Assembly: GCA_963704725.1 (NCBI GenBank)
Contig: OY969934.1
Span: 1,824,001 to 1,888,000, forward strand
Length of the DNA stretch: 64,000 bases
Direction of reading: 5' to 3'
From: an uncultured Actinomycetes bacterium
GTDB taxonomy: Bacteria > Actinomycetota > UBA4738 > HRBIN12
The notes under the pieces were generated by a model. That model made no database searches. It saw nothing but the letters and a program-made list of their open reading frames with translations, and was not told the DNA's origin. Each line of letters starts with the position of its first letter. Position 1 is the first letter of the stretch. Made by a program: the position numbers and the translations under genes. Shown one piece after another: positions 3 to 59,249 of this stretch.

Positions 3-2420
3 ATGGTGCTCTCGCGCTATGGCGACGACCGGTGCGCGTGCGTGGCGATGGTGGACACGTACCGCGCCCGGGCCGCCGTCCGCGAGGTGGGCAAGGCGCT
101 CGGGCTGCCCGAGACCGAGGTCGACACCGTAGCCAAGGCGTTCCCCCACATCGGCGCGAAGGACCTGCAGGCGGCGATCGAACGCCTGCCCGAGCTGGCG
201 GGCTCGAACCTGAACGGCGGCCAGCTCGGGCTGCTGTTCCGGGTGGCCGAGCGGCTCGACGGCTTCCCCCGCCACATCGCGCTCCACCCCTCGGGCATCG
301 TGCTCTCGAACGACGAGCTCACCACCCGGGTCCCGCTCGAGCGTTCCTTCCAGGGGTACCGGGTGATCCAGGCCGACAAGGACGACGTGGAGCTCCTCGG
401 CTACCTCAAGCTCGACGTGCTCGGCGTGCGGATGCTCTCGTCGATGCGCCATGCCCTGGACGAGATCGCCCGTACCGAGCACCGCAAGGTCGACCTCGAC
501 CGGATCCCGCTCGACGACGAGCCGACCTTCGAGCTGATCCGGGCCTCCGACACGCTGGGGTGCTTCCAGATCGAGAGCCCCGGCCAGCGCGAACTCCTGC
601 AGAAGCTCCAGCCCACGCGGTGGGAGGACCTGATCGTCGACATCTCGCTGTTCCGCCCCGGGCCGGTGAAGTCGGACATGATCAACCCGTTCCTCCGTCG
701 GCGCCACGGCATGGAGCGCCCCACGTACGCCCACCCGGCGTTGCGGCCCGCGCTGCGGGAGACGTTCGGCGTGATCGTCTACCACGAGCAGGTCATGCGG
801 ACCCTCGCCGCCATCGCCGGCTACAACCTGACCGAGGCCGACTTCATCCGCCGCCACCTCGGCCGCGACGACCTGCTGCCGAAGCTCCGCGAGGACTTCG
901 TTCGCCGCGCGAGCGCCCGTGGCATCCCCGATGACGTCGCCGCCGGGGTCTGGGGCGACGTGGCCGAGTTCGCGAGCTTCGGGTTCTGCAAGGCCCACGC
1001 CGCGGCCTTCGCCGTGCCGACGTACCAGTCCGCGTGGCTGAAGACCCACTACCCGGCGCACTTCCTCGCCGGGGTCCTCACGCACGACCCGGGCATGTAC
1101 CCGCGACGGCTGATCCTGGAGGACGCACGGCTCCACGGGATCCCCATCCTCCCGCTCGACGTGAACGCGTCGGAGCCGGAGTACGTGGTGGAGGGGGTCG
1201 CGGGGGAGCCGCGTCCGGTCGCGGCGTCGGGGAGGCGCGCTGAGGTCGGGGGTCCGGACCGGGCTGCTCGTCTCCGCCTTCGCCAGGGGTCCGTGCTCCT
1301 CGACGCCCGTCGGCTGCGGCTCCGCTCGACGACGCCCGGTCCGGACCCCTCCCCGCGCGCCGTCGCCGACGTCTCGACCGACGTGGAACGCCCCGCCTAC
1401 GGGATCCGACTCGCGTTGCAGGACGTGCACGGGATCTCAGACGGCGAGATCCGGTCGATCCTCCAGGCCCGCGCAGATCGTCTCTTCCGCGACGTGGGCG
1501 ACTTCCTGCGTCGCACCTCCGTGTCTCGGCCGGTCGTGGAGGCGCTCGCGCACGCCGGTGGGTTCGACGCCATCGACCGCGGCACCCGCCGCGACCGCCT
1601 CTACACCGCCATGACCACCGCCCCCCAACGCGAAGGCGACCAACTCACCTTCGACGTCCACCAACCCCCGCGAACCGAGGAGCCCGCCGGCGGTGACCCG
1701 CGGGTCACGAGCCGGAGTGAATCCACGCGGGAGCGGCCCACGGAGCGAGGAACGGACACGGCAGGTGGCGGGGATGCCGCGGAGGGGTCGGGGAGGAGGA
1801 GCGAAGCCCGACGGCACCATCTCGAGCACGAGCCCCTGGGCGAAGCGACGAAGGAACCGCGACCCCGCAGCGGCATCCCCGCCACCACCCCGGCGATCTC
1901 TCTCCCCGAGTACTCCGACGCCGAGCGTGTGAGAGCCGAGCTCGAGGTCCTCGGCCTCGACGCCAGCCGCCACCTCGTGAGCTTCTTCGAGCCCCTGATC
2001 GCCGACCTCGGCGCCACGCGCGCGGGCGACCTGTGGCGCTGCCGCGCCGGCGAGCGCGTGATGGTGGTCGGGGTGAAGGTGGCCTCACAGACCCCGGCGA
2101 TCAAGAGCGGCCAGCGGATCATCTTCCTCACGCTCGACGACTCGACGGGGCCCGTCGAGGTCACCGTGTTCGAGAGCGTGCAGCCCAAGGTGGCCAAGAC
2201 GGTCTTCCACTCGCTCGTCTTGGCCGTGGCGGGGACCGTTCGGCGGACGGGCCGAAGGGGCGCGTCGGTGATCGCGGAGGACGTGTGGGACCTCGTCGCG
2301 CTGCATCGCGCCAGGCTCGAGGGCCGTCTTTCCGAGGCGCTCGCGCACGAGGGGCCGGGCGGGTCGGGGAGGGTCCCGCGGAAGATCTGGCATTCGAGCG
2401 GAGGGTCGGCCGGCCGATGA
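3..2420 (+). CDS. dnaE2: Error-prone DNA polymerase III alpha subunit (DnaE2), 5'-truncated by the window edge
   Basis: Motifs HIALHPSG, KLDVLG, CFQIESPGQ, SLFRPGP, FGFCKAHAAAF; C-terminal OB fold; actinobacterial tail RKIWHSSGGSAG; two low-complexity in-frame insertions. Confidence 0.93.
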   Translation: MVLSRYGDDRCACVAMVDTYRARAAVREVGKALGLPETEVDTVAKAFPHIGAKDLQAAIERLPELAGSNLNGGQLGLLFRVAERLDGFPRHIALHPSGIVLSNDELTTRVPLERSFQGYRVIQADKDDVELLGYLKLDVLGVRMLSSMRHALDEIARTEHRKVDLDRIPLDDEPTFELIRASDTLGCFQIESPGQRELLQKLQPTRWEDLIVDISLFRPGPVKSDMINPFLRRRHGMERPTYAHPALRPALRETFGVIVYHEQVMRTLAAIAGYNLTEADFIRRHLGRDDLLPKLREDFVRRASARGIPDDVAAGVWGDVAEFASFGFCKAHAAAFAVPTYQSAWLKTHYPAHFLAGVLTHDPGMYPRRLILEDARLHGIPILPLDVNASEPEYVVEGVAGEPRPVAASGRRAEVGGPDRAARLRLRQGSVLLDARRLRLRSTTPGPDPSPRAVADVSTDVERPAYGIRLALQDVHGISDGEIRSILQARADRLFRDVGDFLRRTSVSRPVVEALAHAGGFDAIDRGTRRDRLYTAMTTAPQREGDQLTFDVHQPPRTEEPAGGDPRVTSRSESTRERPTERGTDTAGGGDAAEGSGRRSEARRHHLEHEPLGEATKEPRPRSGIPATTPAISLPEYSDAERVRAELEVLGLDASRHLVSFFEPLIADLGATRAGDLWRCRAGERVMVVGVKVASQTPAIKSGQRIIFLTLDDSTGPVEVTVFESVQPKVAKTVFHSLVLAVAGTVRRTGRRGASVIAEDVWDLVALHRARLEGRLSEALAHEGPGGSGRVPRKIWHSSGGSAGR
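1216..1380. repeat. In-frame palindromic element 1 inside dnaE2
   Basis: Perfect 16-bp inverted repeat 1249-1264/1334-1349, outer arm blocks (1216-1221/1375-1380, 1225-1230/1366-1371, 1234-1240/1355-1361) and a 69-nt loop. Confidence 0.8.
1764..1886. repeat. In-frame palindromic element 2 inside dnaE2, opposite orientation to element 1
   Basis: Perfect 17-bp inverted repeat 1764-1780/1870-1886, inner 1784-1790/1860-1866; the 69-nt loop resembles the reverse complement of the element 1 loop. Confidence 0.8.
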
Positions 2421-50588: not shown

Positions 50589-50672
50589 TGCCGGGAGCGG
50601 GGCTCGAACCCGCACGTGCTTTCGCACAACGCCTTTTGAGGGCGCCGCCTCAGCCAATTGGGCTATCCCGGC
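50589..50672 (-). tRNA. tRNA-Leu(CAA)
   Basis: GCCGGGA/TCCCGGC acceptor stem, anticodon loop CTCAAAA, long variable arm GTGCGAAAGCAC, GGTTCGA T loop; CCA not encoded; -10 TACACT just upstream. Confidence 0.95.
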
Positions 50673-55000: not shown

Positions 55001-55758
55001 GCGCGGCATCGGTGGCACCGAGCAAGGTCGAGCCCCTGATCCGGATGGAGGGCATCCACAAGTGGTTCGAGGACAACCACGTGCTCCGTGGCGTTGACCT
55101 CGCGCTCGAGCCCGGCGAGGTTCAGGTCATCATCGGCCCCTCCGGCGGGGGGAAGTCGACTCTGTTGCGGTGCACGAACCTTCTCGAGCGGCCCACGCTG
55201 GGCAGCGTGTGGTTCGAGGGCACAGACATCACCGACATCCGCGTGAACCTGAACGACGTCCGGACCCGGATGGGGATCGTCTTCCAGCAGTTCAACCTGT
55301 TCCCCCACATGACCGTGATGCGGAACATCACGATCGCGTTGCAGAAGGTCATGAGGATCGACGAGAAGGAAGCCCGGGAGCGGGCGGTCGAGCAGCTCCA
55401 GCGGGTCGGGCTCGAGCAGAAGGCCGACGCCTTTCCGGGCCAGCTCTCGGGCGGGCAGCAGCAGCGGGTCGCGATCGCCCGGGCGTTGGCCATGAAGCCC
55501 CGTCTCATGCTGTTCGACGAGGTCACCTCGGCCCTGGACCCCGAGCTCGTGGGGGAGGTCCTGGCCGTCATGCGCCAGCTCGCCGACGAGGGCATGACGA
55601 TGATGGTCGTCACGCACGAGATGGGGTTCGCGCGGGAGGTCGGGACCTGGATGGTCTTCGTCGACGGCGGCGTGATCGCCGAGAAGGGGCGCCCGAAGGA
55701 GATGTTCGCCAACCCTGAGACCGAGCGGCTCCGGCAGTTCTTCAGCAAGGTCCTGTGA
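54997..55758 (+). CDS. Polar amino acid ABC ATP-binding protein (GlnQ-like)
   Basis: [44 protein letters not shown]. Confidence 0.93.
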
Positions 55759-55762
55759 CCCT

Positions 55763-56134
55763 GTGCCCGTGACCCGACGCTGGCTGCCGATCGCTGCCGT
55801 GCTCGTCGCGGTGGCCTCGCTCCTGGTCTCGCTCGTGCTGGCCGGCGAGGAGCCCGCTCCGTACGTGATCACGGCGATCAACTACCACTTCCACGACGCG
55901 CACCCGACCTTCCCCATCGCCCCGGGGCGCGACCTGGTGGTCAAGAACGCCAGCCAGAACCTCCACAACGTGACGATCCCGGCGCTGAACTACTCGGAGG
56001 ACGTCAAGCCGGGCGAGCAGCTCGTGATCCAGGACATCGCGTCGCAGTTCGGGGCACCGGGCAGATACACGTTCGTCTGCCTGTATCACCAGGATCGCGG
56101 CATGAGCGGCACGCTCATCATCGCGGGAGGGTGA
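55763..56134 (+). CDS. Exported cupredoxin (plastocyanin-like)
   Basis: N-terminal hydrophobic helix; HNVT and C-x-x-H-x4-M type-1 copper ligand pattern (YTFVCLYHQDRGM). Confidence 0.82.
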   Translation: MPVTRRWLPIAAVLVAVASLLVSLVLAGEEPAPYVITAINYHFHDAHPTFPIAPGRDLVVKNASQNLHNVTIPALNYSEDVKPGEQLVIQDIASQFGAPGRYTFVCLYHQDRGMSGTLIIAGG

Positions 56135-56158
56135 GGCGAGGGGCCTCGGGAAGAGATC

Positions 56159-56235
56159 GACGGGCCGAGGAGCCTTTGGAGCCGCTCACGCCTTCCCCAT
56201 ACGCGAGCGTTGTCTACTCGGTTCCTCGGCCCGTC
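56159..56235. repeat. Long hairpin with CCTTCCCC apical loop
   Basis: Perfect 13-bp IR 56159-56171/56223-56235; inner CGCTCACG/CGCGAGCG stem; loop motif at 56191-56198. Confidence 0.65.
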
Positions 56236-56384
56236 AAAAGGTGGCCCCAAGCGACCTCTGAGCCCGGTCGGCCGGCGTATCCTCCGCCTCGGTGGTCCAT
56301 CCCTTGGGGCTTGCGCCCCTCGGTGTGGCCCTCCTTCTCGGAGGCACTACCCGCCTCCCGGTCCCGTGTCGGCCGCTTGGGACC
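56236..56384 (-). ncRNA. Candidate ~150-nt structured small RNA (6S-like rod or multibranch), family unidentified
   Basis: TTGACA-17-TACTGT promoter places +1 at the 5' arm; 14-bp closing stem 56371-56384/56243-56256; GCAA tetraloop hairpin; ends in UUUU. Confidence 0.7.
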
Positions 56385-56391
56385 GGAGCGA

Positions 56392-56420
56392 ACAGTAGCG
56401 ACGTGCCCTGAGCGTGTCAA
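56392..56420 (-). promoter_or_regulatory. Near-consensus housekeeping-sigma promoter of the sRNA candidate
   Basis: TTGACA (56415-56420), 17 nt, TACTGT (56392-56397). Confidence 0.75.
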
Positions 56421-56606
56421 CGCGTTGAAACGCCTGCACCGCAGGCATGACGGATCGATCCCGCAGGTAGCCCCTTGCGTCGCTGCGATGAAGAAAGAGT
56501 GACAAACGGAACGCGTTCCCGATGCGGCGACTGGACCGCCGATCATTCGGGTCGGAACCGTCCCGGGCGTCGGGAGCGTCGGCGGATCGCGCTAGGATCA
56601 GCCGAC

Positions 56607-59249
56607 GTGACCCCTCGCACGATGGACCCGCCGAAACGACTGTTCCTCCTCGACGGTCACAGCCTCAGCTATCGCGCGTTCTTCGCGCTGCCGACGAGCC
56701 TCGCGACGACGACCGGGCAGGTGACGAACGCCGTCTACGGGTTCACGTCGATGCTGATCAAGCTCCTCGCGGAGGAGCGGCCCGATCTCATCGCCGTCGC
56801 GTTCGACGTGGGCAAGCCGACCGCGCGGCTGGAACGGTACGCCGAGTACAAGGCCGGCCGCCCCGAGACGCCGGACGAGTTCCGGCAGCAGCTGGGCCTG
56901 ATCGTGGAGGTGCTCGAGACCCTGCGGATCCCGGTGATCGGGATCGAGGGACACGAGGCGGACGACGCGATCGGGACGCTCGCGGTCCAGGCCCACGGAC
57001 AGGGCATCGACGTCGTCATCGTGACGGCCGACCGAGACTTCTTCCAGCTCGTCCGGCCCGGCATCACGGTGATGTTCAACGTCAAGGGTATCTCCGACAT
57101 CCGGCGGTACGACGTGCAGGCGGTGACGGAGCGATTCGGGCTCCCGCCGGAGAAGTACCTCGAATACGTCGCGCTCAAGGGCGACGCGTCGGACAACATC
57201 CCCGGCGTCCCCGGCGTCGGGGAGAAGACCGCGTCCAAGCTCGTCCAGGACTTCGGGTCGGTCGAAGAGCTCCTGCGCCGCACCGACGAGCTCAAGGGCA
57301 AGCTGAAGGACTCCATCGAGGCGGCGGGGGAGCAGCTCGCGCTCAACAAGGAGCTCGCCCAGCTCAAGCTCGACGTCGAGCTCCCGGTGCGCCCCGAGGA
57401 CTGCGTGATGGGGGAGTGGGACGTCGAGGCCGTCCGGCGCCTGTTCACGTCGCTCGAGTTCCGCACCCTGTTCGAGCGGCTGGAGGAGGTCGGTCGGAGC
57501 GCCAAGCCGGCCGTCGAGGTGGCCGAGCTCGACCTGCGGGAGGCGGCCGTCCCGGAGGTCGCGGCGCTGCTCGAGGCCGACACGCCGAAGGCGCTCCGCA
57601 TCGACGCCGACGGCGGGCGGATCGTGGGCCTGGCGGTCTCGGTCGGCGGCGGGCAGGCGGCGTACGCGCCCGTCAAGAAGGCGTCGGACGTCGCGAAGAC
57701 TCTGGCCGGCCCGGCGCCGAAGTGGACCCACGACGCCAAGGACACCGAGACGGCCGCGCTCGCGGCGGGGGGGAGTCTCGGCGGGGTTGCCTTCGACACG
57801 ATGCTGGCCGGGTACCTGCTCGACCCGGCGGCCCCGAGCTTCGCCCTCGGGGTCCTGTGCGAGACCTACCTCGGGACCGACGTCCTCGGCTCGACGGTCG
57901 AGGAGACCGAGGGCCAGCTCTTCGGCGAGGCGTGGCGTCCCTGGGCGGCGGAGGCGGCCGCCGTGGCCCTGCTGGCTCCGGTGATCGCCGAGCGGGTGGA
58001 GAAGGCGGGGCTGCGCCATCTTCTCGACGACGTCGAGCTGCCGCTGTCCTCGGTCCTGGCGCGCATGCAGGCCGCGGGGGTCGCCCTCGACGTCGAGTAC
58101 CTCGACGAGATGGCCGAGGGCGTCCGGGACAAGATGGCGACGCTCCGCGAGGAGATCTACCGCCACGCCGGCGAGGAGTTCAACCTCAACTCCCCGCCGC
58201 AGCTCCGGACGATCCTGTACGAGAAGCTCCGGCTCTCGCCGGGCAAGAAGACCTCGAAGGGCCAGCTCTCCACGGACGCCTCGGTGCTCGAGAAGCTCCG
58301 CGACGCCCATCCCATCGTCGACGCCCTGCTGTCGTGGCGCGAGCTCGACAAGCTGAACTCCACCTACCTGGAGGCCCTGCCGCGTCAGGTCGATCCGCGC
58401 GACGGGCGGGTGCACACGACGTTCAACCAGACCGGCGCCGCCACGGGACGGCTGTCGAGCTCCAACCCCAACCTCCAGAACATCCCCGTTCGCGGGGAGC
58501 TCGGCCGCCAGATCCGCCGCGCGTTCGTGCCGGGGGCGAAGGACCAGGTGCTCCTCGTCGCCGACTACTCGCAGATCGAGCTCCGGATCCTGGCGCACCT
58601 CGCAGGGGACGAGGGATTGAAGGCGGCGTTCGAGTCGGGGGTGGACATCCACACGGCGACCTCGGCGAGGGTGTTCGGGCTGCCGGAGGACCAGGTCGAC
58701 CCGGCCACGCGCTCCCGGGCCAAGGCGATCAACTACGGGCTGGCCTACGGGATGAACGCGTGGGGCCTCGCCTCGCGCCTGGAGATCACGCCGGACGAGG
58801 CGCAGGAGTTCATCGACGCGTACTTCGCGAGCTTCCCGCAGATCCGCGACTTCCTCGACCGACAGGTGGCCCGGGCCGCCGCCGAGGGTTTCACCGAGAC
58901 CCTCCTCGGCCGCCGTCGCTACATCCCCGAGCTCCAGGCGGCCAATCCAAGGGTTCGCGACATGGGCCGGCGGATGGCGCTCAACGCGCCGATCCAGGGG
59001 AGCGCGGCCGACGTGTTCAAGCTCGGCATGCTCCGGGTGGACGAGGCGCTCCGAGGGTCCACGCTCGGGTGCCGGATGCTGCTCACGGTGCACGACGAGC
59101 TCGTCTTCGAGGTGGACGGGAGGGATCTGGCGGAGGCCTCCGCCCTGGTGAAGCGCGAGATGGAGTCGGCGTACGACCTCGACGTACCCCTCCGCGCGGA
59201 CCTCGGATCCGGCCCCAACTGGGCCGAGGCCGTCCCGGCGGGCCACTAG
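56607..59249 (+). CDS. polA: DNA polymerase I
   Basis: LLDGHSL.YRAFFA, EADD, TGRLSS..PNLQNIP, DYSQIELR, AKAINYG, VHDEL; likely leaderless GTG after TAGGAT (alternative ATG 56622). Confidence 0.97.
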   Translation: MTPRTMDPPKRLFLLDGHSLSYRAFFALPTSLATTTGQVTNAVYGFTSMLIKLLAEERPDLIAVAFDVGKPTARLERYAEYKAGRPETPDEFRQQLGLIVEVLETLRIPVIGIEGHEADDAIGTLAVQAHGQGIDVVIVTADRDFFQLVRPGITVMFNVKGISDIRRYDVQAVTERFGLPPEKYLEYVALKGDASDNIPGVPGVGEKTASKLVQDFGSVEELLRRTDELKGKLKDSIEAAGEQLALNKELAQLKLDVELPVRPEDCVMGEWDVEAVRRLFTSLEFRTLFERLEEVGRSAKPAVEVAELDLREAAVPEVAALLEADTPKALRIDADGGRIVGLAVSVGGGQAAYAPVKKASDVAKTLAGPAPKWTHDAKDTETAALAAGGSLGGVAFDTMLAGYLLDPAAPSFALGVLCETYLGTDVLGSTVEETEGQLFGEAWRPWAAEAAAVALLAPVIAERVEKAGLRHLLDDVELPLSSVLARMQAAGVALDVEYLDEMAEGVRDKMATLREEIYRHAGEEFNLNSPPQLRTILYEKLRLSPGKKTSKGQLSTDASVLEKLRDAHPIVDALLSWRELDKLNSTYLEALPRQVDPRDGRVHTTFNQTGAATGRLSSSNPNLQNIPVRGELGRQIRRAFVPGAKDQVLLVADYSQIELRILAHLAGDEGLKAAFESGVDIHTATSARVFGLPEDQVDPATRSRAKAINYGLAYGMNAWGLASRLEITPDEAQEFIDAYFASFPQIRDFLDRQVARAAAEGFTETLLGRRRYIPELQAANPRVRDMGRRMALNAPIQGSAADVFKLGMLRVDEALRGSTLGCRMLLTVHDELVFEVDGRDLAEASALVKREMESAYDLDVPLRADLGSGPNWAEAVPAGH

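Follow-up and report, generated by a model that had tools for sequence, protein, structure and literature searches.

Within the window, i.e., the whole 64-kb stretch of DNA that was analysed, the region between polA and a cupredoxin gene carries a predicted RNA gene on the minus strand, whose features are collected in Table 1. The polA gene, on the plus strand, has its start at about 56607 and is divergent from the RNA. On the other side, the next gene (55763-56134, plus strand) encodes a cupredoxin, is preceded by a gene for an ABC ATPase and is convergent with the RNA, the 3' hairpin of which is located 25 nt past the cupredoxin stop codon. Since this gene is convergent and no gene lies downstream of the RNA on the same strand, a riboswitch or a cis-acting leader was rejected, in line with a preliminary description of this DNA, in which a free-standing structured RNA had been proposed. 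Regarding polA itself, a GTG at 56499 is in the polA frame (56499-56606, plus strand) and GAAGAAAGAG lies ahead of it; therefore, PolA could start 36 codons before its conserved N-terminus at about 56607. In relatives, conservation of such an N-terminal extension did not go further than the shared DNA block.

The preliminary description had also placed a promoter, TTGACA-17-TACTGT, so that it points away from polA. The positions of both hexamers were confirmed, and the pattern TTGACA-N16-18-TANNNT was matched only once in the 64-kb window, for 0.02 matches expected. A stricter scan for TATAAT-type promoters called none in 55500-57000. Among the homologues, the TANNNT form of the -10 hexamer was kept in 30/30, with a spacer of 17 nt in 23 of them and 18 nt in the other 7. 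In these aligned sequences, the closing stem of the RNA began 6-7 nt past the -10 (7 nt here). The promoter retained by the gene is of the sigma-A type, with a perfect -35, and the +1 is predicted at about 56384.

The predicted transcript runs on the minus strand from about 56384 to about 56150, i.e., about 235 nt, and has two domains: a rod of 142 nt comes first, followed by a 3' hairpin of 77 nt. A simple terminator scan made no call on the U/C-rich tail (56148-56160). Folding of a 149-nt stretch of the minus strand yielded -95.3 kcal/mol (z -7.45, with 0/200 shuffles as good), vs. -71.6 kcal/mol (z -2.37) for the plus strand of the same stretch. The minus strand is far more stable because of its G-U pairs, and the strand of the RNA is set by these pairs together with the promoter. 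When the 3' hairpin was included, the fold reached -146.9 kcal/mol (z -7.17). These features are best explained by a structured, stable non-coding RNA that is transcribed independently.

Three conserved DNA blocks were noted ahead of the promoter. In the 3.45-Mb genome, the 12-mer core of block 1 was found at 4 sites (0 for the control); one of these sites precedes a further locus, locus C, which is described below. Block 1 was also present 26 nt ahead of the -35 of a paralogue of the RNA (paralogue B) in 5 of 15 loci. These upstream blocks may be the site of a shared regulator. Sequences resembling blocks 2 and 3 were also seen, by eye, ahead of the short form of the RNA in other classes.

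Table 1. Positions of the sequence features of the RNA gene, its upstream region and its paralogue.
Feature	Position	Strand	Basis or remark
Upstream block 1, TTTGTCACTCTTTCTTC	56490-56506	minus	85 nt ahead of the -35
Upstream block 2, GCTACCTGCGG (also given as GCTACCTGCG)	56461-56471	minus	conserved
Upstream block 3, small palindrome/hairpin of the type TTGCGgCGCAA	56433-56445	minus	conserved
-35 hexamer, TTGACA	56415-56420	minus	sequence read; TTGACA in 29/30 homologues, TTGACT in 1
-10 hexamer, TACTGT (TANNNT type)	56392-56397	minus	17-nt spacer from the -35
5' rod domain, 142 nt	56243-56384	minus	MFE -95.3 kcal/mol, z -7.45
P1 closing stem, 5' arm, GGUCCCAAGCGGCC	56371-56384	minus	pairs with 56243-56256
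P1 closing stem, 3' arm, GGUCGCUUGGGGCC	56243-56256	minus	pairs with 56371-56384
Rod interior helix, CCUCCG with CGGAGG	56339-56344 with 56281-56286	minus
Rod tip, GGGGC-GCAA-GCCCC, GNRA-type tetraloop	56306-56319	minus	sequence and fold
Repeat CACCGAGG, two copies	56318-56325 and 56287-56294	minus
Linker from rod to 3' hairpin, ACCUUUUGA	56234-56242	minus	its GA pairs with UC at the hairpin base
3' hairpin, conserved core of the family, 77 nt	56159-56235	minus	covariation and cross-class matches
Internal loop, 5' strand, GAGUAGACAAC	56209-56219	minus	near-invariant, consensus GAGUAGAnAAC
Apical loop, AUGGGGAAG, within invariant GGGGAAGG	56192-56200	minus	30/30 class sequences, kept in other classes
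Internal loop, 3' strand, GGCUCCAAA then GG	56175-56183	minus	consensus GGCnCCAAAGG
U/C-rich tail, likely 3' end	56148-56160	minus	tails of relatives also U/C-rich
Paralogue B, whole short RNA	G000:C1:~1988610-1988755; L188 ~1436-1590	plus

Rod and hairpin domains of the RNA

The 14-bp stem with G-U pairs that the preliminary description had seen starting at the predicted +1 was recovered as the closing stem P1, in which two of the 14 pairs are G-U. In the 30 aligned sequences, its 13 consensus pairs were 100% paired; nine were invariant, three varied on one side and one shifted between A-U, G-U and G-C. Because the stem is mostly invariant, with 1/13 pairs changed on both sides, its pairing rests largely on conservation and energy. 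The remainder of the rod, with the CCUCCG/CGGAGG helix and the GGGGC-GCAA-GCCCC tip as previously drawn, was returned by the fold of the minus strand, and three pairs of the tip showed both-sided changes in 2-5 of the 30 sequences. The repeat CACCGAGG, pointed out earlier without any claim on its conservation, does occur twice but was not conserved in relatives.

The shape of the rod was kept while its interior aligned poorly. Indeed, all 30 homologous rods folded with a 4-nt tip loop and 26 of them were unbranched, and the z-scores of 14 distant rods ranged from -3.9 to -7.05. When 34 nt were trimmed from each end, 28/30 of the interiors still formed one end-closed hairpin, with a median z of -3.2 at a median pairwise identity of 63%. 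No large central bubble was predicted in the MFE folds of the 30 rods, the largest internal loop being at most 5+5 nt.

The preliminary description had treated the hairpin at 56159-56235 as a possible extension of the RNA. The extension itself was supported, to about 235 nt, but its optional status was reversed: the hairpin is the most conserved part and the rod is the lineage-specific addition. This is illustrated by BLAST comparisons, in which the segment 56256-56159 was found at 81-90% identity in other families of the order and the middle of the rod diverged. RNAalifold, run on the 30 sequences, predicted the 3' hairpin in its entirety, as well as the closing stem and the tip of the rod.

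Covariation was then observed at two scales. In the alignment of the whole RNA, whose 30 homologues span eight families, 98.4% of the cells were paired vs. 29-49% in slid controls, 13/43 pairs had changed on both sides and the covariation score was 0.229 vs. 0.03-0.08. With a set of 80 distinct sequences of the core hairpin, which takes in other classes, 88.7% of the cells were paired (31-41% in slid controls), 22/27 pairs had changed on both sides and the score was 0.548 (0.05-0.08 when slid). In these figures, the sequences are relatives, so that counts are not independent, and alignments made with the model lean towards its structure. The covarying homologues by which the preliminary description had proposed to judge the RNA were thus obtained for both the whole molecule and the core. 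One predicted pair inside the internal loop was refuted, being unpaired in 69/80 sequences.

Both the lower and the upper stem of the hairpin covary, and the internal loop GAGUAGAnAAC / GGCnCCAAAGG and the GGGGAAGG apical loop are nearly fixed. In the family consensus, CCGAGUAGAgAACG is followed by a stem of 7-9 bp, a loop that ends in GGGGAAGG and the return strand, and then by GGCnCCAAAGG and a lower stem of 14 bp; a variant of the internal loop was seen in some genera belonging to the same family. Two further ideas on the apical loop were discarded, namely a mini-ORF (AUG...UGA), which is not kept in other classes, and a pseudoknot with the CCUUUU linker, which varies when the loop does not and is missing from distant forms.

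Distribution, genomic neighbourhood and paralogue

Only one copy of the RNA gene was found in the genome, a single contig of 3.45 Mb, where the next best match had an E-value of 0.45. BLAST searches against 40 relatives gave strong matches in 38; in the other two, whose genomes are 69% and 81% complete, only chance-level hits were obtained. A covariance model of the 3' part of the RNA (R1, the E-values of which are rough) matched 147/151 genomes of the class, the four misses being 79-90% complete, and 100/101 of those at least 90% complete, the class being a single order among the genomes sampled. Outside the class, 27/140 genomes of a phylum sample were matched, in a few families (10/10 in f14, 6/10 in f18, 4/10 in f9 and 4/5 in f31, plus f11, f23 and f40). 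Across Actinomycetota, the module was carried by 38 of 151 sampled genomes. The tallies for the 40 relatives, for R1 in the class and in the phylum sample and for DUF4193 (see below) include genomes flagged as unpublished; such genomes are also the source of three alignment rows, namely L014 and L026 in alignments A1 and A2 and L192 in A4, and no conclusion rests on these genomes alone.

In public species genomes, pattern scans retrieved at least 118 and at least 120 records. Among the matches listed, all titles were metagenome-assembled Actinomycetota, except one labelled Gemmatimonadales, and no cultured organism appeared. A variant 23-mer was present in 15 records, 3 of them titled Candidatus Solincola.

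In the other classes, a TTGACn-17..19-TAnnnT promoter is located 10-100 nt ahead of the hairpin and a U-rich tail behind it, the 5' part being a short hairpin or nothing, for an RNA of about 90-170 nt. Because these classes have a promoter-led short hairpin RNA without the rod, the rod is a 5' extension specific to the present class, added to an older and shorter RNA of which the 3' hairpin is the ancient core.

Within the class, polA was found divergent and within the 1.7-kb flank in 19 of the 29 loci where the motif was located. In six of these 19 it is directly adjacent to the RNA and in 13 a gene-sized gap of about 1.1-1.6 kb intervenes, occupied by an FTR1-family permease gene on the strand of the RNA in both gap loci inspected (L015 543-1394, L027 235-1080). 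A cupredoxin and/or ABC ATPase gene was present in the flank of 24/30 loci, with the convergent orientation checked for part of them. The RNA was kept where the cupredoxin is absent, and different genes surround it in the f18 loci. In 3 loci of other classes, translations inspected by eye again showed polA diverging from the RNA on one side and an ABC ATPase gene converging on it from the other. By these arrangements, the position of the RNA beside polA is old. As a separate observation, the FTR1-family iron permease gene lies on one side of the RNA in the two gap loci inspected and a cupredoxin gene on the other side in many relatives, and the RNA gene therefore sits inside an apparent iron-uptake gene pair.

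Most genomes of the class contain a second R1 site, here at C1:1988674-1988750 on the plus strand (45 bits, E 1e-7). In line with this, the pattern of the internal-loop module occurred in exactly 2 copies in the genome, against 0 for the control. This paralogue B has a TTGACA-18-TAGCGT promoter, a 5' hairpin, a second hairpin with the module and a U/C-rich tail. It shares the internal loop (CUGAGUAGAGAAC / GGCCCCAAAGG), and its apical loop differs, without GGGGAAGG. A DUF4193 gene lies 3' of it on the same strand in 15/15 class loci, the C-terminal part of the protein, used as tblastn query, starting about 330-540 nt past the RNA; in family f9, the DUF4193 gene is within a few hundred nt 3' of the module RNA in 2/2 loci. 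Paralogue B may be the leader of the DUF4193 gene, or else a separate small RNA.

In a 2026 preprint, the DUF4193 protein ML1026/Rv2699c is reported as essential; AlphaFold3 predicts that it contacts RNA polymerase by binding the beta and beta' subunits, and its depletion leads to rifampicin sensitisation (preprint 10.64898/2026.07.15.738315). This neighbour would provide a weak and indirect tie between the RNA family and transcription. DUF4193 was detected in 71/151 sampled genomes. It was not found in two families that carry the module, f31 (0/5) and f23 (0/1), and, conversely, none of 30 DUF4193 loci from other families showed a copy of the module (0 matches at E<0.1). Because f31 and f23 carry the module RNA but showed no DUF4193, the protein was rejected as an obligate partner.

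Locus C (G000:C1:~698330-698615, plus strand; L190 1312-1600) is a candidate structured RNA of about 285 nt, with a TTGACC-18-TAGATT promoter, a strong terminator and a fold of -163.5 kcal/mol (z -5.8). It is preceded by two of the upstream DNA blocks that also precede the polA-side RNA, matches R1 weakly (20 bits) and had no Rfam match. Its flanks carry GT/GNAT genes and a TetR gene, according to ORF translations read by eye.

Proposed function, alternatives and known RNAs

A scan of Rfam 15 (4227 families) gave no match to the locus at E<=10, which agrees with the suggestion of a new ncRNA class in the preliminary description and covers the 6S, SRP and Y RNA families named there. Likewise, nothing relevant was returned for paralogue B or for 17 distant homologues (the latter at E<=1). 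A tRNA gene at 50589-50672 (minus strand) was the sole Rfam match at gathering level in the window. In the literature, nothing relevant was found on the motif sequence or on structured RNAs near polA in Actinobacteria. The homologues share a promoter, covarying lower and upper stems, the GAGUAGAnAAC / GGCnCCAAAGG loop and the GGGGAAGG apical loop. We thus consider that the RNA represents, on sequence grounds, a new family absent from Rfam 15 and defined by a promoter-led hairpin, covarying stems and fixed loops. To our knowledge, it is rare for a structured RNA to be conserved in almost all genomes of an entire bacterial class, and the known class-wide ones (RNase P, SRP, tmRNA, 6S and Ms1) are all central machines or regulators. 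The present one is near-class-wide, in a lineage known only from metagenomes, and is without a match to a described family.

Loops that stay unchanged between covarying stems usually point to recognition by a protein or a ligand. The reading that we favour, and which stands about equal chances of being right or wrong, is a trans-acting RNA whose fixed loops bind a protein, perhaps in competition with the DUF4193 leader, the rod being accessory. Action in trans is suggested because no same-strand gene follows the RNA. The fixed unpaired nucleotides would form a protein-recognition surface, and the RNA would work by binding or titrating a protein and not by mimicking an open promoter. Since the second RNA, upstream of DUF4193, carries the same internal loop, the free-standing RNA might compete with the DUF4193 leader for one common factor. 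The rod could serve as an added scaffold or stability domain. The module is compact, about 20 nt, and is present in two different RNAs per genome, which makes it a handle for a partner search.

A base-pairing seed would account just as well for the fixed apical loop. In a base-pairing small RNA, the G-rich GGGGAAGG would seed C/U-rich sites in mRNAs or in another small RNA and the rest would provide stability, an alternative that is unlikely without being negligible. Such a role would fit the invariance of the apical loop in 30/30 class sequences, its retention across classes and a free-standing gene that has a promoter of its own and a 3' end resembling a terminator. However, a single seed is insufficient because the internal loop is equally fixed and is shared by a paralogue in which the G-rich loop is missing. 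Moreover, for the one specific target tested, the 3' tail of the organism's own 16S rRNA, the duplex reached -7.5 kcal/mol, and 86% of shuffled loops were as good or better; a decoy for this tail was rejected for the same reason. Extremely improbable, by comparison of the features above, is the view that there is no RNA gene and that the locus is either the palindromic remnant of a mobile element or a long bidirectional terminator, or another 3' element, belonging to the convergent cupredoxin/ABC operon. The hairpin does lie 25 nt past the cupredoxin stop codon, and long palindromes fold on both strands. Nevertheless, the promoter is conserved and precisely spaced, G-U pairs strongly favour the minus strand and the loops are invariant while the stems covary. 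The RNA also persists without the cupredoxin gene and in f18 loci with other neighbours, and a mobile element was rejected because the sequence is single-copy. Beyond the favoured trans-acting, protein-binding RNA, the module hairpin might define a class of transcription-machinery RNAs in deep-branching Actinomycetota without 6S. In this scheme, which we regard as quite improbable, the polymerase or a factor bound to it would recognise the internal loop, the DUF4193-side copy would feed back on the synthesis of DUF4193 as a predicted polymerase subunit and the abundant polA-side copy, enlarged here by the rod, would titrate the factor.

The relationship to 6S or Ms1 put forward in the preliminary description was not borne out, and a divergent RNA of this type, in which the rod would mimic open promoter DNA to bind and sequester RNA polymerase, now seems very improbable. 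The RNA nonetheless shares several features with 6S: it is free-standing, single-copy and rod-shaped, has a strong housekeeping-type promoter and a closing stem in which its two ends pair, and occurs in almost all genomes of the lineage (near-universal in the class). The genome is also without a 6S match, RF00013 (gathering score 46.4 bits) having matched neither the locus (E<=10) nor any other site genome-wide. However, 6S is generally missing in Actinobacteria according to the literature, and its absence here gives no specific pointer because it is usual for the phylum. Unlike 6S, the RNA has its core outside the rod, no large central bubble is predicted in any of the 30 rods (loops of at most 5+5 nt), and relatives in other classes keep the gene without the rod; no Rfam family at all matched the locus at E<=10. 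Ms1, from mycobacteria and Streptomyces, is described as an RNA of about 300 nt with a central bubble and short 5' and 3' terminal hairpins, i.e., a rod plus extra terminal hairpins, and with a HAD-IB hydrolase and an oxidoreductase as flanks in its synteny criterion (PMC9130861). Like Ms1, the present RNA is actinobacterial and longer than 6S, and its rod plus 3' hairpin partly resembles this description. It differs by its length (about 235 vs. about 300 nt), by the lack of a predicted bubble and by its flanks, which are polA, the FTR1 permease, the cupredoxin and the ABC ATPase and not the HAD-IB hydrolase/oxidoreductase pair (PMC9130861). None of the 4227 Rfam families matched the locus at E<=10. 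In favour of a polymerase-related RNA, the paralogue adjoins the gene for a protein whose binding to the polymerase is predicted (preprint 10.64898/2026.07.15.738315).

Other known RNAs were considered. As in bacterial Y RNA, a conserved stem is formed by the 5' and 3' ends; Y RNA was rejected because no TROVE (PF05731; Ro/Rsr) protein was found, with 0 matches in the 95%-complete single-contig genome, and there was no Rfam match. The SRP RNA of the genome is matched elsewhere (RF00169 at C1:294777-294876, 76.4 bits), and the locus is without such a match. The own 5S rRNA (L329, G000:C1:2030252-2030368) has two stretches in common with the RNA: the 9-mer CCGGUCCCA, also present in the 5' arm of P1, and GAGUAG, also present in the 5' strand of the module. 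A 5S rRNA mimic was rejected, the shared matches being not collinear and differing on the opposite strands, and they were judged to be due to chance.

The 6C RNA is an actinobacterial hairpin RNA with a C-rich loop; like it, the present RNA is an actinobacterial hairpin with fixed loop nucleotides and varying stems. Unlike 6C, the loop is G-rich on the transcribed strand and there is no Rfam match. GlmY/GlmZ and CsrB/CsrC are decoy small-RNA pairs, and the sharing of one structured module by paralogous RNAs recalls them. Here, one form is free-standing and the other lies beside an mRNA, with related DNA motifs ahead of them; there is no sequence relationship to these pairs, and a decoy logic would be by analogy. 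A free-standing bacterial structured RNA is familiar as a kind, whereas the family and its module are new. If the link with DUF4193 is true, it would provide a third route coupling RNA and transcription in bacteria, beside 6S and Ms1.
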